Made by a program: the position numbers and the translations under genes. From assembly GCA_047285535.1 (NCBI GenBank), contig JBJBDC010000001.1, positions 2,368,136 through 2,432,135 of the forward strand: DNA of 64,000 nt. The letters run 5' to 3'. The notes under the pieces are model-generated. The model worked only from the letters and a program-made list of their open reading frames with translations. It searched no databases and was not told the origin of the DNA. This DNA is from Synechococcus sp. GTDB taxonomy: Bacteria > Cyanobacteriota > Cyanobacteriia > PCC-6307 > Cyanobiaceae. Shown here in pieces: positions 5,545-28,669 of this stretch. The number at the start of each line of letters is the position of its first letter. Within the stretch, counting starts at the first letter, position 1.

Positions 5545-5548
5545 ATTG

Positions 5549-9550: not shown

Positions 9551-11437
9551 ATGTGCGGAATTGTTGCGGTCATCGGTTCGCGAGATGCGGCACCGCTCCT
9601 GCTGGAAGGACTGCGTCAGTTGGAGTATCGCGGATATGACTCCGCTGGCATTGCCACGTTGCAAAACCAAGAGTTGCACTGCATCCGTGCCAAGGGAAAG
9701 CTGAACAACCTCACGTCCCGTGTGGAGAATGAGGGTGCTCCAGGGCTTTGTGGCATTGGTCATACCCGATGGGCCACCCATGGCAAGCCGGAGGAGCACA
9801 ACGCTCATCCCCATCGTGATGGAAGCGGCGGGGTTGCTGTTGTTCAAAACGGCATCATTGAAAATCACCGGGCCTTGCGGGAGGAGCTCACGGCTGCAGG
9901 GGTGAATTTTCTGTCCGAGACCGACACCGAGGTGATTCCTCATCTGATTGCGGCTCAACTCGAATTGATGGGGGTTGGAGAGGGCGCTGGTAATGGCAGT
10001 GTTCTGCTTCAAGCAGTCCAGGCTGTCTTGCCCCGTCTTCAAGGTGCTTATGCCCTGGCTGTGTTGTGGGCCGATGCCCCAGGTGCCCTGGTTGTGGCGC
10101 GCAGAGCTGCTCCGCTGTTGATTGGTCTTGGCGAGGGAGAATTTCTTTGCGCCAGTGACACTCCGGCGTTGGCGGGGTTCACGCGCACCATTCTGCCCAT
10201 GGAAGATGGCGAAGTTGCGCTGCTAAGCCCCCTTGGGATCGAGCTATATAACGCCCAGGGAGATCGGCAACAGCGCACACCATCAATTTTAAGTGGCTTT
10301 GATCACATTGCCGACAAGCGGCATTTTCGCCATTTCATGTTGAAGGAGATCCACGAGCAGCCCGAAACAGCAAGGCTCTGGGTTGATCGACATCTGCCAA
10401 CTGGCCTTCCCTCCTCTAATCCTGTAGCGCTTCCTTTTGAAGAGACTTTTTATGAGGGAGTCGAGCAGATTCAAATCTTGGCTTGTGGCACCAGTCGCCA
10501 TGCGGCTTTGGTAGGGGCCTATTTACTGGAACAGTTTGCTGGAATTCCAACAACAGTTTTCTATGCCAGCGAGTTTCGCTACGCACCACCTCCACTGGCG
10601 TCCCATACCCTCACGATCGGAGTCACTCAATCCGGGGAAACGGCCGATACCTTGGCAGCTCTCAGCATGGATGCCAAGCGGCGCCAGACCTATGGCCACG
10701 CCGATTACGCATCAAAGCAGCTTGGCGTGACCAATCGCACGGAGAGTTCCTTGGCCCGGCAGGTGCCTTACATCCTTGATATCGGTGCCGGGATCGAGGT
10801 GGGTGTTGCTGCCACGAAAACGTTTCTTGGTCAGTTGTTGGCTTTCTATGGACTGGCGGTTGCTTTCGCCGCAAGGCGGGGGCATCGCTCTGAGGCTGAG
10901 ATCAGCGCCTTGCTGGAAGAACTGCGGGCTTTGCCTAAGCAACTGGAGAGCTTGCTCGAGCATCACGACAAGGGCTCGGAAGCCTTGGCGCACCACTTTG
11001 CTGAAACCCAAGATGTGATCTTCTTAGGCCGAGGGATTAACTATCCGATTGCCCTGGAGGGAGCCCTCAAGCTCAAGGAAATCAGCTACATCCACGCAGA
11101 GGGCTATCCTGCTGGGGAAATGAAACATGGGCCAATCGCCCTGCTCGATTCACATGTGCCAGTGGTGTCGATTGCCATGCCTGGCTTGGTGTTTGAGAAG
11201 GTATTGAGCAATGCCCAGGAGGCTAAAGCCCGCGATGCGCAAATGATCGGTGTGGCGCCTGAAGGCCCTGATACGGAGTTGTTCGATGCGTTGCTGCCGG
11301 TGCCGGAAGTGAGCGAGTGGGTCAGCCCCCTACTCACTGTGGTGCCGATGCAATTGCTGAGTTATCACATTGCTGCCTACCGGGGCTTGGATGTCGACCA
11401 ACCGCGAAATTTGGCCAAAAGCGTGACGGTTGAGTGA
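9551..11437 (+). CDS. glmS: Glutamine--fructose-6-phosphate aminotransferase
   Basis: MCGIV start, GHTRWATHG, TQSGETADT, C-terminal PRNLAKSVTVE. Confidence 0.98.
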   Translation: MCGIVAVIGSRDAAPLLLEGLRQLEYRGYDSAGIATLQNQELHCIRAKGKLNNLTSRVENEGAPGLCGIGHTRWATHGKPEEHNAHPHRDGSGGVAVVQNGIIENHRALREELTAAGVNFLSETDTEVIPHLIAAQLELMGVGEGAGNGSVLLQAVQAVLPRLQGAYALAVLWADAPGALVVARRAAPLLIGLGEGEFLCASDTPALAGFTRTILPMEDGEVALLSPLGIELYNAQGDRQQRTPSILSGFDHIADKRHFRHFMLKEIHEQPETARLWVDRHLPTGLPSSNPVALPFEETFYEGVEQIQILACGTSRHAALVGAYLLEQFAGIPTTVFYASEFRYAPPPLASHTLTIGVTQSGETADTLAALSMDAKRRQTYGHADYASKQLGVTNRTESSLARQVPYILDIGAGIEVGVAATKTFLGQLLAFYGLAVAFAARRGHRSEAEISALLEELRALPKQLESLLEHHDKGSEALAHHFAETQDVIFLGRGINYPIALEGALKLKEISYIHAEGYPAGEMKHGPIALLDSHVPVVSIAMPGLVFEKVLSNAQEAKARDAQMIGVAPEGPDTELFDALLPVPEVSEWVSPLLTVVPMQLLSYHIAAYRGLDVDQPRNLAKSVTVE

Positions 11438-11456
11438 TTCATTCACGGTGTGATTA

Positions 11457-12911
11457 TTACGACGTGCTGGTCACTTGATCAGTTCGTCCGTAGCAGTCCT
11501 CAAAGCGCACGATGTCGTCTTCTCCGAGATATTCGCCGCTCTGAACCTCGATCATCTCCACTGGGATTCGCCCTGGGTTGGAGAGCCGATGTTTGCAACC
11601 AAGGGGGATATAGGTGCTTTGGTTTTCGCCGATCAGCTGCTTGTCCCCATCGCGTTCCACCAGGGCGGTTCCACGCACGACGACCCAATGTTCGGCTCTG
11701 TGATGGTGCATCTGCAGTGACAGGCTGGCGCCGGGATTCACTGAAATCCGTTTCACTTGCCAACGGCTACCTTCCACGATTCCGGTATAAGAGCCCCAAG
11801 GCCGATAAATCTTGCGGTGTGCTTTCCCTTCGGGACTGTTGGCTGCTTCCAGCTGCTTCACTACGGTTTTGACGTTCTGGGCTTGGCTGCGATCTGAGAT
11901 CAACACGGCGTCATCGGTTTCGACGACGACCAGGTTTTCAACGCCTAGACCTACGACCAGTCTGTGCTCACTGCGGAAGTAGCAGTTGCTGCTGCCTTGG
12001 CTGATCACCCGGCCACGCAACACATTGCCGTTTTCATCACGATCAGCTGTGTCCCAGAGGGCACTCCAGCTGCCCACATCACTCCATCCCGCATCGAGTG
12101 GAAGCATGGTTCCGAGCTCGGTTTGTTCCATGACGGCCACATCAATGGCCACATTGGGACATCTGGCGAAGGCCTCTCTCTCCAGCCGTAGGAAGTCCAA
12201 ATCGACCGCATCTTGTTCCAAGGCTGCTCGGCAGCAGCTCACAACCTCTGGTGCTAGTCGTTCGAGCTCAGCCAGCATGGCGCTGGCTTGAAAGAGGAAC
12301 ATCCCGCTATTCCAGGTGAAGCGACCACTCGCCAGGAAGCGTTCAGCGGTTTCTTGATCTGGCTTCTCGACGAAGCGTTTGATCGGAACTGGGGTCAAGG
12401 CACCGGTCTGGAGAGCGGCAGCGGCCTCGATGTAGCCATAGCCCGTTTCGGGTGCTGTAGGCACGATGCCAAAGGTCACCAAGCGTCCTGTCTCTGCTTC
12501 TTTGCGACCAGCGGCGATCGCAGCCTGAAAGTGGGCCTTATCGCGGATCACGTGGTCGGCAGCAAGGACGAGCAGTAGGGGGTCGTCTCCCCTTGCTGTC
12601 GCTTGAAGCGCAGCGACCGCAACCGCTGGTGCCGTATTTCGACCCATCGGTTCGAGCAAGATCGCTCCAGGCTCTACATCGATCTGGCGCATTTGCTCCG
12701 CCACGATGAAGCGATGATCCTCATTGCAGATCAGCAGAGGGCTCCCTAACGCTTCGATCCCAGCCAAGCGCTTTTGGGTTTGTTGAAGCAGGGTGTCATC
12801 GCCGCTGCCGCCCAGAGGCCAATATTGCTTCGGATAACTGGCGCGTGAGAGGGGCCAGAGGCGTGTTCCTGTTCCGCCACAAAGAATTACCGGAATCAGG
12901 GGGGTGGTCAC
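11457..12911 (-). CDS. manC: Mannose-1-phosphate guanylyltransferase / mannose-6-phosphate isomerase
   Basis: GGTGTRLWPLSRASYPKQ, RNTAPA, WSDVGSW, and cupin HHHRAEHW. Confidence 0.95.
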   Translation of the reverse strand: MTTPLIPVILCGGTGTRLWPLSRASYPKQYWPLGGSGDDTLLQQTQKRLAGIEALGSPLLICNEDHRFIVAEQMRQIDVEPGAILLEPMGRNTAPAVAVAALQATARGDDPLLLVLAADHVIRDKAHFQAAIAAGRKEAETGRLVTFGIVPTAPETGYGYIEAAAALQTGALTPVPIKRFVEKPDQETAERFLASGRFTWNSGMFLFQASAMLAELERLAPEVVSCCRAALEQDAVDLDFLRLEREAFARCPNVAIDVAVMEQTELGTMLPLDAGWSDVGSWSALWDTADRDENGNVLRGRVISQGSSNCYFRSEHRLVVGLGVENLVVVETDDAVLISDRSQAQNVKTVVKQLEAANSPEGKAHRKIYRPWGSYTGIVEGSRWQVKRISVNPGASLSLQMHHHRAEHWVVVRGTALVERDGDKQLIGENQSTYIPLGCKHRLSNPGRIPVEMIEVQSGEYLGEDDIVRFEDCYGRTDQVTSTS

Positions 12912-13319
12912 CGAGGGGCTGCCATCAATGGGAATCAGTGTCGCGCAGCTGAGGTGTTTGATTCAAGAGCTTTTGATGTCTATGCCTGCTTAGGAGGTTT
13001 TGTTGGCTGACAATCGCGAATTTGTTGTCCTCAGAGTTATGAAAAATGAGTGTTCATGGAAGCTTTGCCTTTTAGTTATTGCGTAAATCAGTAAGTTCGA
13101 ACTCTTCGTTCTCACGTCGGTGAAGAGCTCAATGCAGGCCTCACTCGTCAGAGAAATAAGTCGATCGTTGTGACTATCTTGCAGATTCCATCACGCAAGC
13201 TAGGTGGCATGGTCATCGGGCGTTTGAAAAAGCCTTCACCAATCCCTTGTCAATTCGTTCCATCGTCTACACCGATTTCAGACTGATTCCAAGAGCTTTT
13301 GCTTCTCCTTCCGGTCGCT

Positions 13320-14618
13320 ATGACTGACCACACCAATGAGGAGCATGCGCTCAGAGTTCTGTTCCGCTGCCTATGGAGTGGTCAGCTGATCTCCAACCTT
13401 GGGACCCAAACAAGTTTGTACGGAATTGGTCTTTGGTTGTTTTCCCAATCAGGACAGCTCTTGGATTTCGGTCTGGTGGCGGTGGTGGTGCAGGTGGCCC
13501 GGCTGCTGGCCTTACCTTTGCTGGCCTCGCGCCTGAACCTTTGGCCGCCGGCGTGGGTAATGCTGATGTCTCATGCTGTTGGCGCCTTGTGCACCTTGGC
13601 GTTGGCGTGGGTGTTGTTGGTCGCGCCGCAACAAGCCTTAGATCCGCCTTCACTAGCTCCGATTTTGTTGATTCAGGGGGTGGCTGCGATCGCTGAAGCA
13701 ACCCTGGTGTTGCGCTTCTCCAGCCTGATCCCGCTGCTGATTGCCGATGGCCCCACATTGATTCGGGCCAATGGATTGTTTGCAACCACCGATGGGTTGG
13801 TGGTGACGATGGCGCCCTTCCTCGGTACCTGGCTGGTGTCGTCGTTGGGGCTTGGGGGGGTCCTTGGTTTGGATGCCCTCAGTTTTGTGGTGGCGATGTC
13901 TTTAGTTCTTATGGCGCCCTGGAGTCAGGAGCTGCTTGAGCGGCTTCCATGCCCACCACCGTCGGATCCAATTGGATGGCGCACACTCCTTAGGCGGTTG
14001 CGTGGCTTCTGGCACAGGCGCATTCAGGCCAGGCAAGCGTTGCTGATTAGCGCCGGGGTGATGGGGGTGTATGCGGGTTGCGAGATCCTTTTTCCCGCCT
14101 GGGTGGCGGAAGGTTGGGGCCCCAATCGCATGGCGGGTGTGCTGGTGCTGGGCTGTACGGGCTATGTGGGAGGTTTCATCGCATGGCGCCTCTGGCTAGG
14201 TCGCTACTGGCGCTTGAGTGGCAGTTTGCTGTTGTTGCTTCAGGCCTTGATCTTGGTAGGCGCGGGTGTTCCAGCCTTGGCGCAGTCCGATTTGCTTTGG
14301 TTCGCCGGCGTGCTGGGTTTCAGCTTGGGCTTACCTGTGGTGACAGCGGCATTGCATCAGTCGTGGGTCACTCTGGCTCAACAAGAGGATCCCACCCGTG
14401 TGTTCGCCTTGCGCTACGGCTGTGAATGGACCAGTCGCCTGCTGGCCTTTCTTACGGTGTCCTTGTTGGCGGATCGGTTGGTGCGCCCTTATGTCTCTGC
14501 GGGCCTGGGTGAGAGTCCTGGCCATGCGTTGGCCTTAACGATGGCCGGTTTGGGAGTGCTGTTGCTGCTGGTGTTGGTTTCAGAGCAGGCTTTGAAGTCC
14601 AGGACTGCTTTGAAGTGA
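13320..14618 (+). CDS. MFS transporter (macrolide-efflux/DHA3-like)
   Basis: About 12 hydrophobic segments; LWSGQLISNLG, RANGL and APFLG...LDALSF typical of this MFS group. Confidence 0.8.
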   Translation: MTDHTNEEHALRVLFRCLWSGQLISNLGTQTSLYGIGLWLFSQSGQLLDFGLVAVVVQVARLLALPLLASRLNLWPPAWVMLMSHAVGALCTLALAWVLLVAPQQALDPPSLAPILLIQGVAAIAEATLVLRFSSLIPLLIADGPTLIRANGLFATTDGLVVTMAPFLGTWLVSSLGLGGVLGLDALSFVVAMSLVLMAPWSQELLERLPCPPPSDPIGWRTLLRRLRGFWHRRIQARQALLISAGVMGVYAGCEILFPAWVAEGWGPNRMAGVLVLGCTGYVGGFIAWRLWLGRYWRLSGSLLLLLQALILVGAGVPALAQSDLLWFAGVLGFSLGLPVVTAALHQSWVTLAQQEDPTRVFALRYGCEWTSRLLAFLTVSLLADRLVRPYVSAGLGESPGHALALTMAGLGVLLLLVLVSEQALKSRTALK

Positions 14619-14631
14619 GAGTCTTGCTGTT

Positions 14632-15741
14632 ATGCGCATCCTGATTTTTACCTCCAGTGGTGGCACCGCCCATGATGCAGCTGCCTATGCGTTGCAGGCT
14701 TGGCTTCGTCAGTGGGACCCCTTAGGTGAGGTGTGGGTGGATCATGTCCTGGAGAACGCAAGCCCCGTTTCGAGAGGGGGCGTGGCGCTCTACAACTGGA
14801 TCCAGCGCCATGCCCCCTGGCTGCACAAGATCTATTGGCGTCTCGTCGAATTTGAGGATTTGATGAAGCCCGGCACCATCACGTTTGGGCGCACATATGT
14901 CATTCGGCTGTTGCGCCGATTGCAACCTGATCTGCTGATTTCCACCCATCCCCATATCAATCGCGGTCATTTCGATCTGGCTCAGCGTGTGCTGCCAGGC
15001 CTGAGGTGTATGACCTGTTGCACTGAGTTGGATGGCGGATTCGGTTTTAGTCGCAACTGGTTGACCCGTCGGAGTGAAGCCTTTTGGACTCAGACTCCGG
15101 AAGTGGCTGCTGAAGTGCGTCGCCGGGGGTATCGGCGCATGAGGACGCCGGTGCTCGGTCCGCTCTTTGATCCTCGTTTTTTGATGGAACTGCGCAGTTT
15201 CACACCTGAGCCTGGGGATCTCCCCGTAGTGGTTCTGGGAAGTGGTGCAAATGGCGCGAATAATCACATTCGCTTGTTGGAGACGTTGAAGTCTCTGGCG
15301 GGCCGCATCCGGGTGGTGGCTTTGTGTGGCAAGCGCGAAGCGGCTAGAGAGCAGCTGGAGGCCTGGGCTCGAGCCCACCCGGAGCTTAGGGTCGAGGCGC
15401 TTGGCTTCCAGGATCCTGCCGGTATGGCCCGTCTCTATCGCCGCGCTTGGCTGATGGTGGCTCGACCTGGGGCCCGAACCGCAACGGAGGCTCTGGCCAG
15501 TGGTTGTGTGTTGGTTTTTAACGGCTTTGGTGGCTTCATGCCCCAGGAGTGGTTGGCGAGGAGCTACTTCGCTGCGCGTGGTCTGGATCTTGCGATTCGC
15601 AGGCCAAAGCAACTGCGGCCGTTGCTGGAGTCATTGCTGGCGCGGCCGGAGCGCTACCGGGCGCTGAAACAGGGCCTTGAGGCGCATCGGCTGAGTGGAA
15701 AGCCAGAGGCCATTCGTGCTCTTTTACTGGCAGATGGGTGA
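14632..15741 (+). CDS. GT28 UgtP/MGDG-synthase-like glycosyltransferase
   Basis: RILIFTSSGGTAHDAAA, PDLLISTHP, GSGANG, VALCGK, VARPGARTATEAL, PQE. Confidence 0.8.
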   Translation: MRILIFTSSGGTAHDAAAYALQAWLRQWDPLGEVWVDHVLENASPVSRGGVALYNWIQRHAPWLHKIYWRLVEFEDLMKPGTITFGRTYVIRLLRRLQPDLLISTHPHINRGHFDLAQRVLPGLRCMTCCTELDGGFGFSRNWLTRRSEAFWTQTPEVAAEVRRRGYRRMRTPVLGPLFDPRFLMELRSFTPEPGDLPVVVLGSGANGANNHIRLLETLKSLAGRIRVVALCGKREAAREQLEAWARAHPELRVEALGFQDPAGMARLYRRAWLMVARPGARTATEALASGCVLVFNGFGGFMPQEWLARSYFAARGLDLAIRRPKQLRPLLESLLARPERYRALKQGLEAHRLSGKPEAIRALLLADG

Positions 15742-18700
15742 AGACGGACTGATGAATTGGCACCAGAACGCTACCGATGATCTCAACGCAGAGTCGTCCC
15801 TGAATTTAGAGCCGATTGCTGTGCTGGGGATGGGATGCAGGCTTCCTGGTGGCATTGAGAGTCCTGAGCAATTTTGGGAGTTGTTGGCTGATGGACGGGA
15901 GACGATTACTGAGGTGCCAGCAAGCCGTTGGGATCAGAGCTTGCATTACCACCCCGACCCACGCCATCCCCTTACCCAGCATGTGAGTCGGGGCGGCTTC
16001 GTGCAGGGGATTGACCAGTTTGACCCTGCGTTTTTTGGGATCAGCCCGCGCGAAGCAGTGTGCATGGATCCTCAGCAGAGGATGTTGCTAGAGGTGGCCT
16101 GGCGGGCGATTGAAAATGGTGGTCAACCGCTGGAGCGGCTCAAGGGTCGTGCCGTGGGGGTGTTTATGGGCATCTCCAGTACTGATTACGCAGCCTTGCT
16201 TTGGGCTTCGGAAGATCGTTGGCTCACCCCCGATAACGATCCTTTCATTTTGGCGGGTAACACCGGTTCCATTGCTGCCAATCGGATCTCCTATCTCTTT
16301 GATCTTCGAGGGCCGAGCTACACGATCGATACGGCCTGTTCTTCGTCGTTGGTGGCTGTGGATCAGGCCTGCGCCAGTCTCTGGAGAGGCGAATCTGAAC
16401 TGGCGCTGGTCGGGGGCGTCCAAGCTCTGATTCATCCGGCGATGCAGACCATGTTCTGCAAGGCAGGATTGTTATCTCCTGCAGGGCGTTGCAGCAGTTT
16501 TGATGCCGCAGCGGATGGGTATGTGCGTTCAGAGGGTGCAGGAGCGGTCTTGCTCAAACCATTGGCTGCTGCATTGAAGGATGGGGATCCCGTACAAGCT
16601 TTGATCCGCGGGACGGCAGTGAATTCCGATGGACGCAGTCCAGGCATGGCCGCTCCCAGTGTCAAAGCCCAGGCGGCCTGCATGAAACAGGCCTATGCCC
16701 GCGCAGGTCTTGATCCGAGAGATTGCCTTTATGTGGAGGCCCATGGCACAGGAACCCGTCAGGGGGATCCGATTGAATTGCGCGCCTTGGGGAGTGTGTT
16801 GGCTCCTGGCCGGGACTCCGATTCGCCCTGTCGGGTGGGATCGGTGAAATCAAATCTCGGCCACAGTGAAACTGCGGCTGGGATCACAGGCTTGATCAAG
16901 GCGGTGCTCTGCTTGCAACAAAGGCAACTGCCGGCCAGCTTGCATCTCAAGACGCCCAATCCGTCGGTTGATTTCGCTGCTCTTCGCCTGCAGGTGCAAA
17001 CAGTGCTCGAACCCTTCCCGGAGCTTGAGAGCGAGCCGGTGTTGGGCGTTAGTTCCTTCGGCTTTGGCGGCACCAATGCCCACGCGGTTCTCACTCCGGC
17101 ACCCGAGCAATCTCCCCAAGAAACAGAGCATGAGCATGGGCCCTGGGTGCTAGTGCTCAGTGCTCGCAGCGAAGTGGCGCTCAACCACCTCAGGCGTGAG
17201 ACAGCCGATTGGTTGGAAGCCGACCCCAGTCTCAATTTGGCAGATGTTTCTGCCACCAGCCTTCGAGGGCGTAGCCGTTTCCCCCATGCATTGGCTTGTC
17301 GTTACAGCAATCACCAGGATTTGCTGGTCCAATTACGGGGAGAGCAGCCCGTTAGCTGGCAGGGGATGCTCTCCGAAGAAGGTCCTGCAGAGCTTCAGGC
17401 CTTAATCAAGGCCTGCAAGCCGCTGCCGGAGCGACACCGCTGGCTGCCGCTGCCTGGGCACCCTTTCCTGCGGCAACGCTTCTGGTGGCCTCAGGCTGAC
17501 GCTGATGATGCGGTAAAGGGTGCGTCTCTTTGGCTTGATCGGCTTGGTTTAGGTCAAGTGGTTAATGACACTCAGGCGCATGCCTGGCAACGTTTGGACT
17601 TGCCTGGTGAAAGTCAGTACCTGCAGGCAAGGATTCTTGAGCCCAGTCAGGGAGATCTGGACGACCATCGCATCCGTGGCCAGATCGTTTATCCAATAGC
17701 TGGGCATCTGGCGCTCGCTTTCGATTGGTTGCAGCGCAATCGAGAGCCTCTGCAGCTTCAGAAGTTCGTGCTCGACACCCCTTTGCGCCTTGATCACCGG
17801 AGTGATGTCACGCTGCAGGCCGTGCTGAAGGATCAGCAGCTGGAGCTGTTCAGCCGTTCGGATGGGGAGGAAGGCAACTGGTGCCGCCACGGCGCTTTAG
17901 CCATGGTTTCCACTGCTGAATGGGACCTGTCGCCACATCCATTGATCGACGAAGACAGGGAGCAGGAGCGAAAGGACTGTGGGGAGTTTTATGCCGAGCT
18001 GCACAGTCACGGGTTGGAGTACGGCCCGAAGTATCAGCCGATTCTCAGTTTGCGTGCCCAGAACGGGATTGCTGAGGCCGAACTGCAGCGGCCAGCGGAT
18101 GCCCCAGATCGATGCCTTCTCGATGGATGCCTTCAGGTGGTGGCTGCGACCTTGCCTCAGGGTTCGGCGAGAGCTCAGCTGCTGTTGCCGATTGGATTGG
18201 AGCGGATCCAGATGCAGTCTTGGCCACTGCCCGAGCGGTTGCAGTGCTGGGCGCAGAAGCGTCCTGATGATGGTCAGGCTGATCCTTCTCTATTAGTTGC
18301 GGATCTCTGGATCGAGGCGGATGGTCAACGCGTTGGCTGGATCGAGGGTCTGAGGGCGCGCCGCCTCCCGCGGCCAATGCTCGAGCTGCTTTTCCCTCTG
18401 CCCCCACCTCCTGCAGGACCGGACTTGCTGGAAACCCGCTGGGAGCAGCTCGAGGTTTTGCCAGATCCGCCAGCCGTCTCGATACCCGAGGACTCCAATG
18501 AGGTGGCGGAGCAGTTCGTTGAACTCGAGGACATGACGACGGCCTTGTTTCTGGAGAAGGTTCAGGCTTACGCAGCGGATGAACCCCTTCAATTGAGGGT
18601 GATCGTTCGGGATGCCGGTGACGATGCGCTCGCTCTGCGAGCAGCATTGCGCTGCCTGGCCATGGAAAGATCTCGTTGGACCTGTAGCTGGTGGCAGCTA

Positions 18701-21700
18701 CCTCCGTTGGTCGAGCGTCAGCCGGATGAGGTCGATCGGGCCCGTTTGGCCCTGATCAGTTCTGAGATCAGTGAACTGCGCTGGCAGGACGGGAAGGTTT
18801 CAGTCCCGCGTCTTCAGCGGTTGGATCCTGTGCGGATTCAATGGCTCGGTGACGGCAGCGGCCGATTGGATGGACTGCTTCGTCAGCCGTTGCCAGTGCC
18901 GGCCTTAATGCCGGGTGAGTTGGAGGTGAAGGTTGAGGCGACGGGGCTCAATTTCAGAGACGTGCTCAATGCCCTTGGGCTGTTGCAGGCGCATGCTGCG
19001 GGTCTCGGTCTGCAGGCAACCGGTCAGTTGCCCTTCGGTGGGGAGGCGGTTGGGCAAGTGCTGGCTGTGGGGGAAGGAGTGGATCCGGCCCTTGTCGGCC
19101 AACGGGTGCTAGCAGCTCTCTCGGTGGGCAGCCTGGCCACGCATGTTGTATGCCGGGCTGATCTCTGTGTGCCCTGGCCTGAGGCGTTGCCACTGGAGTT
19201 GGGAGCGAGTGTGTCCACCGCATTCCTGACGGCGATTTATGGGCTGGAGACGCTCGCCAAGCTCCAGCCTGGTGAAACCGTGTTGATTCATGCCGCTGCT
19301 GGTGGCGTTGGGCAGGCAGCCCTGCAGATCGCCCATCGCTGTGGTGCTCGGATTCTGGCAACAGCCAGTGCTGGTAAACACGAGAGGGTGCTGGAGCACC
19401 CCGGGGTCGAAGCCGTGTTTGATTCCCGCAGCACAGCATTTTCTGAGCAGGTGTTGGCCCACACCAGCGGCCGCGGCGTGGATGTGGTGCTCAACAGCCT
19501 CAAGGGGGAGTGGGTGGATGGCAGCTTTGCGGCTCTCGCTGATGGCGGTCGTTTTGTGGAGCTTGGCAAGTTGGACGTGTGGACGCGAGAGCAGGCCCAG
19601 GAACGACGCCCCGATGTGCGCTATCTCCCCTTTGATCTGCTTGAAGTGTCGGCAGCTGATCCCTTATCGCTGCGCTGTCAGTTGCAGAAGCTCGTCGTTG
19701 CCTTTCAAGAGGGTGCACTCGCTCCGATTCCCTGCCAATCCTTTCCGGTGGAACAGCTCGCCGATGCCTTTCGCCTGATGGCCCAGGGCCGCCATGTGGG
19801 CAAGCTGGTCATCCTTCAACCGCAACGCCCTGAGCCGGTGCGGATCCTGGCGGATGCCACCTATCTCGTGACTGGCGCCTTGGGAGGGGTGGGCTTGCAG
19901 CTGCTGCCTTGGCTTGCCGATCAGGGCGCGCGTTCCCTGTTGCTGGTGAGCCGGGGCGTGGAAGCGCCCTCTGCAGAGGCCCAGGCCGTGTTGGATCAGT
20001 TGGAGGCCCAGGGCGTGGGCTGCCGCAGGTTTGCTTGTGATTTGTCCGGGGGCGTTTCGGAAGCGGAGCGCTTGCGCCAGGTGCTGATGGCCTTGCCGAT
20101 GGAGCAGCCCTTACGCGGGTTGATCCATGCGGCTGGGGTGTTGCGCGATCGCCCCATGCAAGAGCTCACATCTGAAGACCTCAATGCAGTGATGGCTCCC
20201 AAATTGAATGGTTGGCAGTTACTCGAGCAAGCTCTCGAATCCCTTCCTCCTCTGGACTTTCAGCTGGCGTTTTCATCATTGGCAACCCTGCTGGGCTCCC
20301 CTGGCCAAGTGGCCTATGCCGCCGCCAATGGTGCTCTGGAGACCTGTTGTGCCATGGCTGCAGACCACAATCCTGGAAGCCCGATGAAGCTGGCAATTCA
20401 GTGGGGACCCTGGGCTGGGGCTGGCATGGCCGCTGGCCTGGAGGATCGTTTCGCAAGTGTGGGCCTTCAGATGTTGGCACCGGATGCGGCGCTTGAGGCT
20501 TTGGGGGCTCTGCTTGAGCGTGGGTGTTCCGGGGTGGTGGCAGTGGTGGAGGCCGACTGGGCACGGGTGCGGGGCCAGGCCCTGCCACGCCAGGGGGATT
20601 TTTTGAATGCACTGCAGCCGGATGAGACGGCCGATGCCCGTTTGGCAGTGCAAGAACAGTTGCGGTCTTTGACCGTGGACGATCGCCTGCCTTGGTTGTT
20701 AGGTCGCTTGACAGAGAAGCTGGGTGAGGTGATGGAGACCGATGCCGGCACGATTGATCCGCTCGCCTCCTTGTTCAGCCTGGGCCTTGATTCGCTCATG
20801 GCGGTGGAATTCGCTGCGGAAGTGCAGAGCGAGTTGGGGTTGCGCTTGGAGTTGGAGGCGTTTCAGAACGACCCTCGTTTGCAGGATCTGGCCCAGATGG
20901 GCCTGGAACAGTTGCTCCCCGAAGCCGGTGGTTCGGCTCCTGCGCTTGATCTGACTGTTGAAGCTCAGCTGCCGGAGGACTGGATGATGCCCAAGTCGCC
21001 TGCTCTTGAATCCCCCGGTGAGCGGGTGCTGATGACTGGTGCGAGTGGGTTCTTGGGCGCTTATCTGCTTGCAGGGCAGTTGAGGCGCTGGCCCGATCTC
21101 AACGTGCGCTGTTTGGTGCGCTGCCCTTTGGCGGAACAGGGTCTGGAGCGGCTGGAGGCCAATCTGCGCGGCTACGGCCTTTGGGATCCCGCATGGCGTG
21201 AGCGGCTGGAGGTCGTCCCCAGTGATCTGGCGCAGCCACGCTTCGGGCTGGAGGAGGACGCTTTTCAGTCTCTGATCGATGGAGTGGGAGGCATCCTTCA
21301 TAACGGTGCCCAGCTGGGCTACTTGGCTTCCTATTCACAGCTGGCAGCGGCGAATGTGGGCAGCACCCGCGATCTTTTGCGATTGGCAACGGAGCACGGG
21401 CCGATTCGCCTGGAGCTGATCTCCAGCGTGGCTGCTTTTGAGGCGGATGCCTGCCGGAACCGCGAGATTTTGGAAGATGAACCCCTGCTGCATTGGCAAG
21501 GCATCCATCTGGGCTACTCCCAGACCAAGTGGGTGAGCGATCGGCTGGTGTGGAAGGCGGGTCAGTCCGGGTTGCCGGTCACGATTTATCGGCCTCCCTT
21601 GATCGGCGGCAATACTCAGCCTGATCGAGACGGCCGCCATCATTGGCAGGAGGGCAATCTTCTGCAGCGCCTTCTGCAGGGCTGCTTGCAGCTGGGCAAG

Positions 21701-22141
21701 GTGCCTGATCTGGAGTGGGAGCTTGATGCAGTGCCTGTGGATTATGTGGCTGATGCCATTTCGGCGTTGGCCTGGAGCGATGGAGCCGCAGGGCAGGTTT
21801 ATCATCTCCAGCACCCGCGGCCGTTATTACTGAGTGAGCTATTGGCGCGGCTCTCGGCACGGGGGATGTGTCTGGAGACGGTGTCAACGGAGGAATGGCT
21901 AACTGCAATCGCGGCGACGAGCTCTGAGCATCCATTGCGAGCGCTGTTGCCCTTCTTTCAGCAGCGCTGGGGTCTTGAAGGACTCACATTCCCAGAACGG
22001 AATGTGCGTGGCGTGCGGGCTCGCCCCAGCTGTGATTTCACGATGCGGGCCTTGGGGGCTCTGGGGGTGCAATGCCCGGATCACGACCTCTTGGAACAAG
22101 CCTGGGGAACGGCTCTACTGGGTCAGGCAACCGTGGAGTGA
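15734..22141 (+). CDS. AT-less type I PKS: KS-DH-ER-KR-ACP-thioester reductase
   Basis: KS DTACSS/EAHGTGT/NLGHSE; DH HRIRGQIVYP and DGCLQ; ER GLNFRD and HAAAGGVG; KR TGALGGVG, VLRD, YAAAN; ACP GLDSL; R TGASGFLG and YSQTK. No AT GHSxG motif. Start is 15734 or 15752. Confidence 0.93.
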   Translation: MGEDGLMNWHQNATDDLNAESSLNLEPIAVLGMGCRLPGGIESPEQFWELLADGRETITEVPASRWDQSLHYHPDPRHPLTQHVSRGGFVQGIDQFDPAFFGISPREAVCMDPQQRMLLEVAWRAIENGGQPLERLKGRAVGVFMGISSTDYAALLWASEDRWLTPDNDPFILAGNTGSIAANRISYLFDLRGPSYTIDTACSSSLVAVDQACASLWRGESELALVGGVQALIHPAMQTMFCKAGLLSPAGRCSSFDAAADGYVRSEGAGAVLLKPLAAALKDGDPVQALIRGTAVNSDGRSPGMAAPSVKAQAACMKQAYARAGLDPRDCLYVEAHGTGTRQGDPIELRALGSVLAPGRDSDSPCRVGSVKSNLGHSETAAGITGLIKAVLCLQQRQLPASLHLKTPNPSVDFAALRLQVQTVLEPFPELESEPVLGVSSFGFGGTNAHAVLTPAPEQSPQETEHEHGPWVLVLSARSEVALNHLRRETADWLEADPSLNLADVSATSLRGRSRFPHALACRYSNHQDLLVQLRGEQPVSWQGMLSEEGPAELQALIKACKPLPERHRWLPLPGHPFLRQRFWWPQADADDAVKGASLWLDRLGLGQVVNDTQAHAWQRLDLPGESQYLQARILEPSQGDLDDHRIRGQIVYPIAGHLALAFDWLQRNREPLQLQKFVLDTPLRLDHRSDVTLQAVLKDQQLELFSRSDGEEGNWCRHGALAMVSTAEWDLSPHPLIDEDREQERKDCGEFYAELHSHGLEYGPKYQPILSLRAQNGIAEAELQRPADAPDRCLLDGCLQVVAATLPQGSARAQLLLPIGLERIQMQSWPLPERLQCWAQKRPDDGQADPSLLVADLWIEADGQRVGWIEGLRARRLPRPMLELLFPLPPPPAGPDLLETRWEQLEVLPDPPAVSIPEDSNEVAEQFVELEDMTTALFLEKVQAYAADEPLQLRVIVRDAGDDALALRAALRCLAMERSRWTCSWWQLPPLVERQPDEVDRARLALISSEISELRWQDGKVSVPRLQRLDPVRIQWLGDGSGRLDGLLRQPLPVPALMPGELEVKVEATGLNFRDVLNALGLLQAHAAGLGLQATGQLPFGGEAVGQVLAVGEGVDPALVGQRVLAALSVGSLATHVVCRADLCVPWPEALPLELGASVSTAFLTAIYGLETLAKLQPGETVLIHAAAGGVGQAALQIAHRCGARILATASAGKHERVLEHPGVEAVFDSRSTAFSEQVLAHTSGRGVDVVLNSLKGEWVDGSFAALADGGRFVELGKLDVWTREQAQERRPDVRYLPFDLLEVSAADPLSLRCQLQKLVVAFQEGALAPIPCQSFPVEQLADAFRLMAQGRHVGKLVILQPQRPEPVRILADATYLVTGALGGVGLQLLPWLADQGARSLLLVSRGVEAPSAEAQAVLDQLEAQGVGCRRFACDLSGGVSEAERLRQVLMALPMEQPLRGLIHAAGVLRDRPMQELTSEDLNAVMAPKLNGWQLLEQALESLPPLDFQLAFSSLATLLGSPGQVAYAAANGALETCCAMAADHNPGSPMKLAIQWGPWAGAGMAAGLEDRFASVGLQMLAPDAALEALGALLERGCSGVVAVVEADWARVRGQALPRQGDFLNALQPDETADARLAVQEQLRSLTVDDRLPWLLGRLTEKLGEVMETDAGTIDPLASLFSLGLDSLMAVEFAAEVQSELGLRLELEAFQNDPRLQDLAQMGLEQLLPEAGGSAPALDLTVEAQLPEDWMMPKSPALESPGERVLMTGASGFLGAYLLAGQLRRWPDLNVRCLVRCPLAEQGLERLEANLRGYGLWDPAWRERLEVVPSDLAQPRFGLEEDAFQSLIDGVGGILHNGAQLGYLASYSQLAAANVGSTRDLLRLATEHGPIRLELISSVAAFEADACRNREILEDEPLLHWQGIHLGYSQTKWVSDRLVWKAGQSGLPVTIYRPPLIGGNTQPDRDGRHHWQEGNLLQRLLQGCLQLGKVPDLEWELDAVPVDYVADAISALAWSDGAAGQVYHLQHPRPLLLSELLARLSARGMCLETVSTEEWLTAIAATSSEHPLRALLPFFQQRWGLEGLTFPERNVRGVRARPSCDFTMRALGALGVQCPDHDLLEQAWGTALLGQATVE

Positions 22142-23358
22142 TCACGCTGATTTGTGAGCAGGGGTTGTGGCTGGCCCTAGGGATCCAGGGGTTGGTCCTG
22201 GTGCTGTTCGCTTGGCGCTGGCACGGGCTGCGCGATGAGCAACGTCGCTGGCCGAGGGAGCCCGAGGGTGGTTGGCCAGACCTGGAAGTGCTTCTGTGTT
22301 TGCGCGGCGCTGATGCAGCGCTGCCGGCTCTTCTTGCCAGTCTGGCGGCACAGGCCTACTCAGGCTGTTGGCATTTGAATCTTGTGGTTGACAGCGAGGA
22401 TGATCCCGCTTGGGGCCTGGTGGATCCTTGGCTGAAAACGTCGCAGGCGGGCTGGAGCTCGATCCGGCGTGAGCGTCTGCACCAAAGACCTGTGCAGGGA
22501 TCGCTGAAATGTGCAGCCCTCCGCCAGGCGTGTTCTTGCTTGGTGCCGACAACAAAGCTGGTGGTGTTGCTGGATGCCGATGCCACGCTCTCTCCGGACG
22601 GTCTCCAGCGGTTAGCACGTGCGTGTTGGCGTCCAGGGGTGGGGGCGGTGTCCGGTAATCGTTGGTATGCGCCTGCTGGCTGGGGCCTCCTTGCTTGGTC
22701 GCGGGCGGTGTGGGGTGCTGCTGCCCTGGTCTTGATGACCATGCTAGAGATCCCATGGGGCGGCAACCTCGCTCTGCGGCGGGAGTTGGTTGATGCTGGT
22801 GGTTGGAGTGAGCTGCTCGAGCGCGGGCTCTGTGAAGACACGGGACTGCTAGGACCGTTGCAGCACTTAGGGATGCGTTATGAACCGCGCCCCGAGTTGC
22901 TCGTCCTGGAGCGGAGCGTGCCAGAGACTTGGGGCGAGCTCTATCACTGGATCAGTCGTCAGATTCTCAACACCCGTTTGCACCATCCCGCAGGTGTGTT
23001 GGTGCTGTGTTATGGCCTGGGTTCCATGCTGGTTTTACTCCTGCTTGGGGTGGCAGTCCTCAATGGGATCTGGTGGGTGGCGCTTGGATACGAGCTGGGC
23101 TGTTGGATTCTGCTGCTGTGCCTACAGGCAGTGGTGATTCGACGCTTGTCGCAGTCTCGTCAGGTCATGGGTTGGCTGCTGGGTGTTCTGCCGGGACAGG
23201 TGATCAACAGCGCCACAACTGTTGGAGCTTGGCTGCAGAGAAAGGTGGCGTGGCGTGGCGTGACCTACCAGGTGACCCACCGTCCTGTTGGCGTGTGCTT
23301 GATCGCAGAGAGCAAGCGGCTTAGGCGGGAGCCAGCATCAACTGACGCAGTGTCTTGA
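22138..23358 (+). CDS. Membrane glycosyltransferase, ceramide glucosyltransferase/HpnI-like (GT21/GT2)
   Basis: N-terminal TM, LRGAD, LLDADA, WGGNLALRR, CEDT, WISRQ, C-terminal TMs and VAWRG. GTG overlaps the PKS TGA. Confidence 0.78.
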   Translation: MITLICEQGLWLALGIQGLVLVLFAWRWHGLRDEQRRWPREPEGGWPDLEVLLCLRGADAALPALLASLAAQAYSGCWHLNLVVDSEDDPAWGLVDPWLKTSQAGWSSIRRERLHQRPVQGSLKCAALRQACSCLVPTTKLVVLLDADATLSPDGLQRLARACWRPGVGAVSGNRWYAPAGWGLLAWSRAVWGAAALVLMTMLEIPWGGNLALRRELVDAGGWSELLERGLCEDTGLLGPLQHLGMRYEPRPELLVLERSVPETWGELYHWISRQILNTRLHHPAGVLVLCYGLGSMLVLLLLGVAVLNGIWWVALGYELGCWILLLCLQAVVIRRLSQSRQVMGWLLGVLPGQVINSATTVGAWLQRKVAWRGVTYQVTHRPVGVCLIAESKRLRREPASTDAVS

Positions 23359-23869
23359 AGTTCTTCTGAAGGCTGGCGTCATGGAGGCTGCGGAAGCTGG
23401 GAAGGAGCAACGGTGGCACCTCCGGTTTGAGACGGATGGTGTGAACGATGCGGGTGCCGCCTGCCACAGGAGTGAGTGTCCAGTCGCCTGAGAGGGCGCT
23501 GATGCGATCCCCTTGCACGAGCCAGTACCGGAGGGTGCGGGACTTCACATCTTCTTTCCCCTCAAGAAGGGCAGTGATGCTGAGCCCAAAGGTGTATGGA
23601 GCTTTCAGAACTTGGCGCAGGCGCAGTTGCTGCCCCTTCCTCGACACCAGGCTTACGGCCTTCACATCCGGCATGGCTGAGAAGGTGCGGGTGTAGTCGG
23701 TGAGGACGGCCCAGGCCCGCTCTGCTGGCACTGGAACTTGCATGGAGACTGTGGCCTTCTCTCCATTGCGTATCAGTTGCACTTGTTCACTGGCCCGGAG
23801 TTGCACCAGGGCTGCCGGTTTAGGCGGCGGTGGTTCCTGCAGCTGCGGGTTGAGGAGGAGCCACAGCAT
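23321..23869 (-). CDS. SRPBCC/START-fold (polyketide cyclase/dehydrase) protein
   Basis: PAERAWAVLTDY...MPDV, GDRISALSGDWTL and a C-terminal helix. Confidence 0.75.
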   Translation of the reverse strand: MLWLLLNPQLQEPPPPKPAALVQLRASEQVQLIRNGEKATVSMQVPVPAERAWAVLTDYTRTFSAMPDVKAVSLVSRKGQQLRLRQVLKAPYTFGLSITALLEGKEDVKSRTLRYWLVQGDRISALSGDWTLTPVAGGTRIVHTIRLKPEVPPLLLPSFRSLHDASLQKNFKTLRQLMLAPA

Positions 23870-23871
23870 GG

Positions 23872-25647
23872 TCAGAAACTCACCAAAACCCTGCCACCCC
23901 AACGGATCTGCTCAGCATTGAGTAGCTGACCCACATCGAGGATGGAAGCGGCGGTGCTGCCGTAGGCCTCAAGTGCCAAGCTTTCAGTTGTGCTCCAGCG
24001 CAGACCCAAGGTGCCGTTGCTCTGAGCCAAATTATTGACCACCACATTGCCTTCTGGTACCAGTTGCCAGCGCGGGGCCAGCTGAACGTTGGCACTGAGG
24101 CCAACCCCCCAGAGATTGCCGCCGCCGCTTAAAACCACCTTGGGATTGGCATTAAGAGCTAAGCCAGGGCTTGCTTCCCAGGTGAGCATCGTTTCAGCGA
24201 ACACATAGCCCTGGCCAGTGTTGTTCACGATGTCGCTGTTGCGGCCGAGAGTGATGCGACCACCGCCCCAGACCGGGGCCCCGCGCAGGGGGCTGAAAGC
24301 AACAGCTTTTCCGCCAATGCGCCAGTTCCACGCTCCGTCATTGGCGTAGAGGCGGGCCTGGGGGGTTGTTTGGGGCACGTTGTTGTAGAGGCCGCCACTG
24401 AACAGAAACAGCTGGAAGATGTTGGAGATGGAATAGCCGAGGAATGGATTCAGGTTTCCGCCGCTATCGCCATTCACCCAGAAGTCAAAGCTGTCATCAG
24501 GTGGCACCAGGGCTGTATTCACGGTGAGCCCACCCTTGGCCAGAGAGCGCTGTCTGCTTGTGAGTGGCTGCTGGGGGGTGTCAGGCGCATCGGGGGTGAA
24601 CACAAAGCTGGCTGCATAGCCGAGGCGATTGTCTGAGGGGAGGGCGAGCAAGGATGTTGCAGGCGAGGCACCAAAGCCATTGGTGAGTTGTCCCCGTAGC
24701 CCGATTCGTGGGTTGAGATCCCAGTTAAGACCTGCTGAGACAATGGGTACGCGTGAAAAGTTGAGATCGGCATCGAAGCTGTTACTTCCTGAGCCGATGG
24801 GTTGAGCCACGCTTGCGGTCAGCCCTAAATGCTGATTGGCTTGCCAAAGCAGACCACCAGAGAGGTAAGGGTTGGTGCCGTAAAAACGGCCTCTTCCGCC
24901 CTGCCCTGATCCTTGAGTTGCTGGCAGCCAACTCACGCCAGGCGCAAAACTGAACTGAAGTTGGTCTGTGGCTTGCCAGGTGAAGGGGAGCGAAAGAGAC
25001 CCCACCAGATTGCGGGTGAAGACGCGTCGACCAGAATCATTGAAGATGTTTGGTGAGGCCGCATCGCCTTGAGAGGCGAATGAGTCGTCACCGCCGCTAC
25101 CAACGTTCCAGACTTCTAAAGAGCCGTTGATAGCCATGCTGAAGGTCTTGTGATTCAGCACGCGCCATCGAGCCGCACCGCCGTAGCTTTCCCAAAAATT
25201 GGCCGGTCGCGTCTGGAATCCAGTCAGTGGAGCATTGAGCGGGTCATCGGATTGGGTGTAAAAGGCGGAGATCTGCAGCGATTCCGTGAGTCCTATATCA
25301 AGATTCGCCGCGTAGTTTTGGTTGCCGGTGCCTGTGTCACTGTCAAATGGCGACAGGGTGATCGCGGAGAAGCGCCACCGCTCAGGTTCTAGTAACAAAG
25401 ACGTTGGCACTGCAGCGGAAAGGCGCAGCAATGGCAAGTAGTCCGCGGAGATCAGAGGAGTGTTAATGGATGCCGCTTCAATTTGTTTGACATTCAGTGG
25501 TTGTAAGGCCGGAGTTGGAGGGTTGGCTTTGATGGGTAATGCCGGCTCCTTGAGGACTTCCCAGCGAGGCCCATCGTTGGAGATGAAAGCTGGAGAAATG
25601 ATTGGCGGTGGTGGGGGTGGGGGAACAGGAGCCCAAGAGATTGGCAT
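23872..25647 (-). CDS. Putative outer-membrane beta-barrel protein with two similar halves
   Basis: Alternating amphipathic strands rich in G/N/W; ends in RWGGRVLVSF (beta-signal-like); Pro-rich N-terminus; coupled to the phosphatase stop. Confidence 0.6.
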   Translation of the reverse strand: MPISWAPVPPPPPPPIISPAFISNDGPRWEVLKEPALPIKANPPTPALQPLNVKQIEAASINTPLISADYLPLLRLSAAVPTSLLLEPERWRFSAITLSPFDSDTGTGNQNYAANLDIGLTESLQISAFYTQSDDPLNAPLTGFQTRPANFWESYGGAARWRVLNHKTFSMAINGSLEVWNVGSGGDDSFASQGDAASPNIFNDSGRRVFTRNLVGSLSLPFTWQATDQLQFSFAPGVSWLPATQGSGQGGRGRFYGTNPYLSGGLLWQANQHLGLTASVAQPIGSGSNSFDADLNFSRVPIVSAGLNWDLNPRIGLRGQLTNGFGASPATSLLALPSDNRLGYAASFVFTPDAPDTPQQPLTSRQRSLAKGGLTVNTALVPPDDSFDFWVNGDSGGNLNPFLGYSISNIFQLFLFSGGLYNNVPQTTPQARLYANDGAWNWRIGGKAVAFSPLRGAPVWGGGRITLGRNSDIVNNTGQGYVFAETMLTWEASPGLALNANPKVVLSGGGNLWGVGLSANVQLAPRWQLVPEGNVVVNNLAQSNGTLGLRWSTTESLALEAYGSTAASILDVGQLLNAEQIRWGGRVLVSF

Positions 25648-26126
25648 CAGTTTGCTTCTTTGTGAGCGCCCCTTAGAGCAGGGTTTCTCAACAGTGCGAG
25701 TTGGCCTGGAAGCGGGTTGGTGCCTGGATGCACCTGCATCAGGTAATCCAGAGCTTGCTCAGGGCTCAGGTTGTGGTGCTGCACTAGCCAACCCAGGCAG
25801 ACCAGGGGAGATCTTTCCATTGCTGCAACACAATGAACAAACACTGAGCCATGCTTTTGATGCAGCTTTGCCAGTCGATCCAGTGCTGCGATCAGCTCAT
25901 CAAACGCGGGAAGGCGCCCGCTTCGATGATCAGGCAGCACAAGGCGGCAACAGGCAAATTGGCCATTCATTGAGGGTGGAGGTGGGGCTTCATCTTCTGA
26001 GCAGAGGCTGAGAACGGCCTTAACGCCTGCATCCTTGAGCCTGGAGAGGTGACGCTCTGCACAGGGTGCTGGACCTATCGCTAGTTCATCAACAAGAATC
26101 CAGTCTATTTTAAAAGGTTTTTGCAT
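25647..26126 (-). CDS. Dual-specificity protein phosphatase
   Basis: LPDH general-acid loop, VFVHCVAAMERS (CX5R) and NPLPGQL. Confidence 0.88.
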   Translation of the reverse strand: MQKPFKIDWILVDELAIGPAPCAERHLSRLKDAGVKAVLSLCSEDEAPPPPSMNGQFACCRLVLPDHRSGRLPAFDELIAALDRLAKLHQKHGSVFVHCVAAMERSPLVCLGWLVQHHNLSPEQALDYLMQVHPGTNPLPGQLALLRNPALRGAHKEAN

Positions 26127-26131
26127 AGAGA

Positions 26132-28594: not shown

Positions 28595-28669
28595 ATTGCC
28601 TTACTTCCAGTGCAGGTATTGTCCGATGCATGCTTGCTAATGAGAGTCCCTATGGGACACTTCTTTTGA

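Follow-up and report, generated by a model that had tools for sequence, protein, structure and literature searches.

The window analyzed here, a 64,000-nucleotide stretch of the genome of a marine Synechococcus sp. (G000:C1:2368136-2432135, within a single-contig genome of 3.03 Mb), contains a gene cluster built around a type I polyketide synthase (PKS). On balance, and with reservations, we lean towards the view that this cluster is a reduced variant of a six-gene accessory module of the Cyanobiaceae, which would make a glycolipid with a PKS-derived aglycone and move it to the cell envelope. Judged from the encoded domains and families, the best reading of the product would be a glycosylated PKS-derived alcohol that is exported to the envelope. 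The window variant is set apart by a PKS without an acyltransferase (AT) domain, by the absence of a P450 and a hydrolase gene, by envelope proteins without leader sequences, and by tight packing with the genes for Wzc and a DSP phosphatase.

Gene organization of the cluster

Four open reading frames (ORFs) are found on the plus strand at positions 13320-23358. An MFS-type transporter, a putative inner-membrane exporter (13320-14618, +, 432 aa, ATG start), is followed by a GT28-like (MGDG-synthase-like, GT-B) lipid glycosyltransferase (14632-15741, +, 369 aa, no transmembrane segment), the AT-less fully reducing type I PKS with a terminal thioester reductase (15734-22141, +, 2135 aa, ATG start) and a GT21-like membrane-embedded GT-A glycosyltransferase of the GT2 clan (22138-23358, +, 406 aa, GTG start). 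Other possible starts all lie upstream (TTG at 13299 for the MFS protein, GTG at 15695 for the PKS, ATG at 22072 for the GT21-like enzyme). The MFS and GT28-like genes are spaced by 13 bp (14619-14631), the GT28-like gene and the PKS overlap by ATGGGTGA at 15734-15741, and the PKS and the GT21-like gene overlap by GTGA at 22138-22141. All three junctions read as the first-pass annotation of this DNA had given them. The intergenic stretch on the 5' side of the cluster (12800-13450) has no Rfam match at E<=1. Promoter-like and terminator-like consensus sites in 12800-28800 were uninformative, numbering 1 (4.8 expected) and 19 (18.4 expected), respectively.

The same annotation had called these four genes self-contained, which does not hold. 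The PKS has no AT, a phosphopantetheinyl transferase (PPTase) and a loading module are missing from the cluster, and the co-inherited unit reaches beyond the four plus-strand genes, onto the minus strand as far as position 25647. Encoded there are an SRPBCC (Polyketide_cyc2/START-like, PF10604) lipid-binding protein (23321-23902, −) and a 591-aa protein of no known family (23872-25647, −), which an AF2 model predicts to consist of two small outer-membrane beta-barrels in tandem. The GT21-like and SRPBCC genes are convergent, and their 3' ends overlap by 38 bp (23321-23358).

Co-inheritance, gene order and selection

To describe the distribution of the module we counted its genes in 101 related genomes. 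A full-length PKS occurs in ten of them (G000, G003, G024, G030, G034, G036, G038, G040, G055, G060), and the SRPBCC gene in exactly the same ten. The GT21-like gene is present in all ten PKS carriers and has two distant matches (29-32% identity) elsewhere; the barrel gene is likewise present in all ten, with four distant homologues (29-48% identity). For the GT28-like gene the count is 13, made up of the ten carriers, one intact copy in G018 and stop-riddled remnants in G002 and G004. The presence of the MFS gene was judged in the fetched orthologous loci only, where it was found in nine out of nine, at varying positions inside the cluster. The expectation that these genes occur together in other genomes was thus borne out, and in all nine fetched relatives they are adjacent to one another; the arrangement does not look accidental.

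Three gene orders are seen among the lineages, namely MFS-GT28-PKS-GT21, GT28-MFS-PKS-GT21 and GT28-PKS-GT21-MFS. The shuffled order at constant content is an argument for a functional linkage of the genes rather than for a neighborhood kept by descent alone. Two further genes lie between the SRPBCC and the barrel gene in seven of the ten carriers, one for a P450 (E 1.7e-60) and one for a 364-aa membrane protein with the nucleophile-elbow motif GHSSG, a candidate hydrolase with a weak Lipase_3 match and no NCBIfam or PDB match. Both genes are absent from the window, G040 and G030. The P450 and the candidate membrane hydrolase of the relatives fit a tailoring of lipids, as far as their families indicate.

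The module genes are under purifying selection, with dN/dS values against G040 of 0.15 for the PKS, 0.19 for the GT21-like enzyme, 0.23 for the SRPBCC protein and 0.11 for the barrel protein. On the scale of the family the GT21 marker was found in 37 out of 401 sampled genomes and in 12 out of 46 genera. Named homologues come from Synechococcus BIOS-E4-1, MIT S9504, MIT S9508, MIT S9509 and UW179A, from Prochlorococcus MIT 1307 and MIT 1341, and from freshwater Cyanobium.

Decay of the module was observed as well. The locus of G018 (L031 = G018:C1:2304001-2324000; 9837-11955) retains the intact GT28-like gene and a KS stub of 153 aa that abuts a GT4 fragment, the module being interrupted inside the ketosynthase (KS) region by a polysaccharide cassette; cassette exchange therefore occurs at the module site. 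The GT28 remnants mentioned above lie at G004:C1:121557-121958 (2 stops) and G002:C1:237809-238477 (12 stops).

The polyketide synthase and its missing acyltransferase

According to Pfam and NCBIfam, the domain order of the PKS is KS, a remnant of the KS-AT linker, dehydratase (DH), enoylreductase (ER), ketoreductase (KR), acyl carrier protein (ACP) and terminal thioester reductase (R). The KS (aa 26-405) and the retained KS-AT linker/flanking subdomain (aa 408-535) occupy 15809-17338 (+; PF00109, PF02801, PF16197, PF22621, PF22336), followed by DH (aa 620-881; 17591-18376, +; PF21089, PF14765), ER (aa 1060-1360; 18911-19813, +; PF08240, PF00107, PF13602), KR (aa 1375-1561; 19856-20416, +; PF08659 with E 8e-46), ACP (aa 1658-1721; 20705-20896, +; PF00550) and R (aa 1765-2115; 21026-22078, +; TIGR01746, PF07993).

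That the motifs of all these domains are intact had been noted from the window alone, and the same is true of ten out of ten aligned orthologues. Kept throughout are the Cys-His-His triad of the KS in DTACSSS, EAHGTGT and NLGHSE (PF00109, E 6e-90), the catalytic His of HxxxGxxxxP in the DH, the ER motif HAAAGGVG, the Rossmann nucleotide-binding motif and the Tyr of the KR, the Ser of GLDSL in the ACP, and GxxGxxG (TGASGFLG) together with YxxxK (YSQTK) in the R domain. The latter reaches 240.4 bits with TIGR01746 (cut-off 213.35), and its closest solved chain is that of MxaA (4u7w, E 3.8e-64, 220 bits), an alcohol-forming reductase which carries out a four-electron reduction to the primary alcohol. 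For the PKS as a whole the best solved-structure relative is mycocerosic acid synthase (MAS; E 7e-202), and a copy 92% identical to that of the window occurs in Synechococcus sp. AG-679-C18.

With the AT domain model (PF00698) the window PKS gave no match at the loose limit of E<=10, and no AT lies between KS and DH. The orthologue of G055 (2685 aa) does bear one (PF00698, E 1.7e-49), and with this protein as the reference 307 + 78 residues of the AT region are absent from nine of the ten aligned orthologues, including the window PKS. Next to GT21 in further genomes, AT-less ORFs of 2201-2207 aa were found in G109, G114, G125 and G178 (three further genera) and AT-bearing ORFs of 2471-2808 aa in G138, G181, G194 and G418, a tally that leaves out G289 and G243. 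Altogether the AT-less form is seen in at least 13 genomes and five genera, with ORFs of 2123-2207 aa. In a large protein database the nearest homologues lack the AT and have an R domain (2118-2222 aa), and the remoter ones have both (2443-2591 aa). Because one orthologue with a KS 66% identical to that of the window still bears its cis-AT, the AT-less state is most simply explained as derived, the domain having been excised from a cis-AT PKS in certain lineages, and not by membership in the classical trans-AT clade.

As the cluster lacks an AT, a PPTase and a loading module, it must borrow these functions in trans. A stand-alone FabD-like AT (a 321-aa ORF) is encoded outside the cluster at C1:1851343, and two PPTases of the Sfp type at C1:1746990 and C1:1196341. 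Elsewhere in this genome the only ATs are FabD and the AT of a second PKS.

This second PKS (2888 aa; G000:C1:1197689-1206355, minus strand, L033:7689-16355) lies outside the window and has the domain order FAAL-ACP-KS-AT-KR-ACP-sulfotransferase-hydrolase, with FAAL standing for fatty acyl-AMP ligase. We take this to be the architecture of an olefin synthase (Ols/CurM-type). A PPTase of the Sfp type (L033:5897-6634) and a DUF6208 gene adjoin it, and G032 holds a homologous ORF of 2933 aa. Considered as a partner of the cluster, the second PKS was set aside as a separate pathway because of its olefin-synthase-type domain order. Its AT, or the PPTase beside it, could act in trans for the cluster PKS.

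The two glycosyltransferases

The GT28-like enzyme scores above the Pfam cut-offs for PF06925 (MGDG_synth; 28.4 bits, cut-off 25) and PF04101 (Glyco_tran_28_C; 23.8 bits, cut-off 22). Its closest relatives of solved structure are a processive diacylglycerol beta-glucosyltransferase (9wde, E 1.2e-12), plant MGD1 (4wyi, E 3.7e-7) and MurG.

The GT21-like enzyme is assigned by PF13506 (29.9 bits, cut-off 21.7), is also matched by PF13632, and has no sequence match in the PDB. The residues D146 and D148 of its DxD motif are invariant among the orthologues. An AF2 model from an alignment of 40 sequences (pLDDT 93.7) predicts an N-terminal transmembrane helix, a GT-A domain, an interface helix and three C-terminal transmembrane helices. 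Fold neighbors of this model are hyaluronan synthase (TMq up to 0.66), BcsA, PcManGT, ArnC and GtrB. As these span processive synthases and glycosyltransferases acting on lipid carriers, the fold settles neither acceptor nor processivity.

A GT21-like gene (32% identity) is also present in a distant cyanobacterium (L032; G069:C191:1-18792), within a different lipid-type cluster. Genes for a GT4, an SDR, an ABC protein, a DevA/DevC/DevB-like exporter, a response regulator of the AraC type, FAAL, ACP, an AurF-like protein and a KS-AT-KR PKS accompany it there.

Transporter, SRPBCC protein and predicted tandem barrel

In a rough hydropathy profile the MFS protein has some 12 hydrophobic segments, and it weakly matches TIGR00900 (E 1.1e-11). 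The SRPBCC protein is assigned by PF10604 with 45.6 bits (cut-off 27.4). The 591-aa barrel protein gave no match in the Pfam and NCBIfam scans; its AF2 model from 37 sequences (pLDDT 78.1) contains about 25 strands.

We compared the predicted barrel fold with VIA-align, an all-against-representatives structural search. The N-terminal barrel (about residues 76-355) resembles NanC (Z 17.8, rmsd 2.7, 194 residues aligned, over residues 92-352), the beta-domains of autotransporters (Z about 17) and LpxR. For the C-terminal barrel (about residues 362-591) the neighbors are FapF (Z 18.9), KdgM (Z 18.7, rmsd 2.0, 167 residues aligned) and the COG4313 outer-membrane channel (Z 17.4), and the C-terminal residue of the protein is Phe. 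The topology of a 22-strand TonB-dependent receptor, which Foldseek had returned with E 1e-10, yields TM-scores of only about 0.2, and the two-barrel result of VIA-align was preferred. The protein is thus a predicted tandem of small outer-membrane barrels that belongs to no described family. Homologues of it (29-48% identity) occur in G046, G048 and G056 (small genomes of 1.7-1.8 Mb) and in G077, none of which gave a match for PKS, GT21 or SRPBCC, so that the barrel family extends beyond the module.

A further hint towards the location of these proteins arises from their N-termini. Longer orthologues of the barrel protein (635-681 aa) carry clear Sec signal peptides, and the SRPBCC orthologues of G038, G024, G034, G060 and G055 have N-termini that resemble signal peptides. 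For most lineages this speaks for a barrel located in the outer membrane and a lipid carrier in the periplasm. The window and G040 copies of the barrel protein (MPISWAPVPPPPPPP...) and of the SRPBCC protein (MLWLLLNPQLQEPPPP...) possess short proline-rich N-termini and no leader. For the barrel protein this leaderless variant has many relatives in the database.

Proposed pathway and points that weigh against it

Taken in sequence, the encoded functions could form a biosynthetic route as follows. The KS would be primed by a fatty acyl chain from primary metabolism, as there is no loading module. The ACP would be activated by a PPTase encoded elsewhere, and in place of the deleted cis-AT the stand-alone FabD may load the malonyl unit. 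One or several elongations would follow, each fully reduced by KR, DH and ER, whose motifs are all observed; an iterative mode like that of MAS is conceivable. The R domain, given its family and its closeness to MxaA, would release the chain reductively as an aldehyde, which is probably taken further to the primary alcohol. The membrane-embedded GT21-like and the peripheral GT28-like enzyme might then add one or more sugars; their families are assigned from sequence, and acceptor, sugar and order are conjectural. Finally, the MFS protein may export the glycolipid across the inner membrane, the SRPBCC protein may carry it, and the tandem barrel may pass or hold it at the outer membrane, roles suggested by co-inheritance and predicted folds. 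The general logic of reductive release, glycosylation and export, already outlined in the first-pass annotation, fits these data.

Several observations weigh against this pathway. The carrier genomes are kin, and the co-occurrence counts do not represent independent events. A starter-loading enzyme (FAAL or acyl-CoA ligase) is not encoded in the cluster. The match of the MFS protein to PF07690 (E 9.5e-6, 25.2 bits) stays under the gathering threshold of 33.4. The GT28-like enzyme obtains 59 bits with the equivalog model for UgtP/diglucosyl-diacylglycerol synthase (NF010135, cut-off 500) and the GT21-like enzyme 49.6 bits with that for HpnI (TIGR03472, cut-off 310). With both scores so far under their cut-offs the activities of HpnI and UgtP are not transferable, so that of the earlier assignment the two lipid-glycosyltransferase families stand and the specific activities fall. 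The fold of the GT21-like enzyme is, moreover, as near to processive synthases such as hyaluronan synthase. Lastly, neither the barrel nor the SRPBCC protein of the window has a recognizable signal peptide, and none is encoded in the frame upstream, and such leaderless proteins fit badly with periplasmic and outer-membrane roles in the window lineage.

Genomic surroundings and composition

Upstream of the module lie the core genes thiC, tkt, fabF, glmS and manC. Downstream follow the DSP phosphatase (25647-26126, −), Wzc (26132-28594, −), Wza and then an island of surface-polysaccharide genes. Wzc, DSP, barrel and SRPBCC genes are packed on the minus strand with gaps or overlaps of at most 31 bp.

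The GC content of the cluster is 59.9%, compared to 50.6% for the genome, which places it among the three 10-kb regions of highest GC. Its third-position GC (GC3) of 0.61-0.68, however, is no different from that of the core genes beside it (0.59-0.71), and a recent foreign origin by composition was rejected on this ground; Wzc has a GC3 of 0.45.

The polysaccharide island (28670-64000) extends over more than 35 kb at low GC (33-49%). It contains Wza, sugar epimerases/dehydratases, UDP-glucose dehydrogenase, an ABC exporter, FdtA, DegT, several GT2 and GT4 enzymes, two FkbM methyltransferases, a pyruvyl transferase, EpsG and AsnB, as well as three ORFs without a Pfam match (45595-46413, 46906-48138 and 63150-63917). 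A second patch of low GC (1921-5640, 39-43%) is situated between thiC and tkt and comprises a 502-aa ORF without a Pfam match (1921-3429) and a GT2 and GtrA-like gene pair (4394-5640, minus strand).

Alternative explanations

The neighborhood itself suggests one alternative, namely that the module serves the adjoining Wzc/Wza system, its PKS glycolipid acting as the lipid primer for a capsule or exopolysaccharide, or as the anchor of such a polymer in the outer membrane, and the barrel being an export accessory (compare Wzi, GfcD). The close packing of Wzc, DSP, barrel and SRPBCC genes and the bordering island are in line with this, as is a Wza-like gene that lies a few kb at most from the barrel gene in all carriers examined (the window, G034, G038, G024, G036, G060 and G055). 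Yet Wza-like genes are common, being found in 66 of the 101 genomes and in 26 out of 45 within the genus, mostly without a PKS module; for this reason Wza/Wzc was also rejected as a defining part of the module. In G034, G038, G024 and G036 a different, shorter Wzz-like gene stands in the place of Wzc and DSP beside the barrel gene, and the lower GC3 of Wzc suggests a history separate from that of the module. We regard this explanation as unlikely. We give still less credit to the idea that the GT21-like enzyme is a processive, channel-forming synthase of the hyaluronan/cellulose synthase type, which would build up and translocate a sugar chain (oligo- or polysaccharide), perhaps attached to the PKS lipid, where a non-processive enzyme would transfer one sugar. 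Its best Foldseek matches (Chlorella virus hyaluronan synthase with the TMq value given above, Xenopus HAS1, BcsA) and the modeled interface helix with three C-terminal transmembrane helices agree with such a role. Against it stand the Pfam assignment to GT21, the about equally good matches to the non-processive lipid-carrier glycosyltransferases PcManGT, ArnC and GtrB, and a length of 406 aa, which is small for a channel-forming synthase. Processive synthases are expected to carry a QxxRW motif, and the invariant residues of the interface helix (W271, R274, Q275, R280, H283) do not form one.

The losses in the window lineage could also mean that its cluster is a decaying relic which no longer makes a product: the AT, the P450 and hydrolase of the seven fuller carriers, and the signal peptides of barrel and SRPBCC protein are all gone, and plain decay is seen in G018, G004 and G002. 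However, every ORF of the window cluster is intact with all catalytic motifs present, dN/dS against G040 is 0.11-0.23, the AT-less form is kept across five genera, and the leaderless barrel has its many relatives, so that we see only a small chance of this being the case. The smallest chance is left to a scheme in which both glycosyltransferases act on ordinary membrane lipids (diacylglycerol/glycosyl-diacylglycerol), while the product of the PKS with its R domain has nothing to do with them, being a free fatty aldehyde or alcohol or else a wax or hydrocarbon precursor. It is true that the nearest solved relatives of the GT28-like enzyme use diacylglycerol and that an R domain guarantees only reductive release, but GT21, GT28 and PKS have a common pattern of presence and absence and stay adjacent despite rearrangements, the UgtP equivalog is missed by far, and cyanobacteria already possess separate MGlcDG and DGDG synthases.

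Comparison with known systems

The nearest known system in logic is that of the heterocyst glycolipids of the Nostocales (hgl island HglE/F/G/D/C/A/B, HglT, DevBCA-HgdD), in which, as described in part in PMC11804610 and PMC4247773, a PKS-type chain is released as an alcohol by a thioester reductase, capped by a glycosyltransferase and exported by a dedicated system. The proposed pathway shares with it the cyanobacterial host and the succession of PKS chain, reductive release, glycosyl cap and export to an envelope layer. It differs in a single MAS-like module of 2135 aa instead of a multi-subunit system like the polyunsaturated fatty acid (PUFA) synthases, in export parts consisting of MFS, SRPBCC and tandem barrel instead of DevBCA-TolC, and in a host that is unicellular and non-diazotrophic. 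The GT28-like and GT21-like enzymes furthermore contrast with HglT, which is an enzyme of the GT1/GT4 type. In the family scans the window cluster contained no ABC/HlyD/FtsX genes, and a multi-subunit HglE-type synthase with CLF, HglT and DevBCA were not encountered there, with no direct hgl search having been made. Since synthase architecture, both glycosyltransferase families and export parts differ, the cluster is not an hgl island.

With MAS and Pks2 of mycobacteria the PKS has the fully reducing set KS-DH-ER-KR-ACP in common, MAS being its best solved-structure match. Enzymes of the MAS type lengthen long fatty-acyl primers in repeated rounds, and the chains serve in envelope lipids. In contrast to these, the cluster PKS has no AT, its C-terminal R domain replaces the acyl transfer by a partner protein, and no FAAL loader is nearby. 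NF041183 (Pks2) is among the top NCBIfam matches of the PKS, with 790 bits against a cut-off of 2400; the PKS is therefore not an ortholog of Pks2. The R domain shares the Rossmann motif and YxxxK with MxaA of the myxalamid synthetase, which belongs to another assembly line, and the choice between a two-electron and a four-electron outcome is not readable from sequence. The missing cis-AT and the preserved KS-flanking linker subdomain (PF16197, PF22621, PF22336) are reminiscent of trans-AT PKSs, from which the window cluster differs in lacking a dedicated gene for a free-standing AT. In gene content the fuller relatives of the module would resemble fungal biosurfactant clusters (sophorolipid, cellobiose lipid, mannosylerythritol lipid (MEL)), where genes for a P450, a pair of glycosyltransferases, an enzyme similar to esterases or acyltransferases and an exporter (MFS or ABC) are likewise grouped. 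The fungal systems differ in their unrelated organisms and enzymes and in their aglycone, a hydroxy fatty acid from fatty acid synthase (FAS) and P450 and not a PKS-reductase product.

The first-pass annotation knew of no characterized product for this gene arrangement, and the cluster is not described in the full-text literature consulted, including passages of PMC8430335, PMC4247773, PMC11804610, PMC10783134, PMC7522525 and PMC7014017, whose supplementary tables (e.g. the cluster-family tables of PMC4247773) lie outside this statement and might list it.

Implications for picocyanobacteria

Beyond the window, we tentatively put forward a wider idea, which we hold to be possible and still doubtful. 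In marine picocyanobacteria a dedicated trans-envelope route of MFS protein, periplasmic SRPBCC protein and tandem double-barrel might deliver a phosphorus-free, PKS-made alkyl glycoside to the outer membrane, into it or onto it, as a surface lipid that varies between strains, and the synthase of streamlined marine lineages, with its AT excised, might depend on the FabD of fatty acid synthesis. The lineage-specific deletion of the cis-AT from an otherwise intact and conserved PKS represents a natural experiment in the conversion of a cis-AT module to loading in trans.

Few phototrophs in the sea are as abundant as Synechococcus and its relatives, whose surface chemistry has effects on grazing, on the attachment of phages and on aggregation. 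The module is an accessory trait and borders on the main variable island of surface-polysaccharide genes. If the alkyl glycoside reading is true, its compact enzyme set of one PKS with R domain and two glycosyltransferases would be of interest for biosurfactants, and the product could be a new source of biomarkers similar to heterocyst glycolipids. It would then also represent a new class of phosphorus-free envelope lipids for non-heterocystous cyanobacteria.

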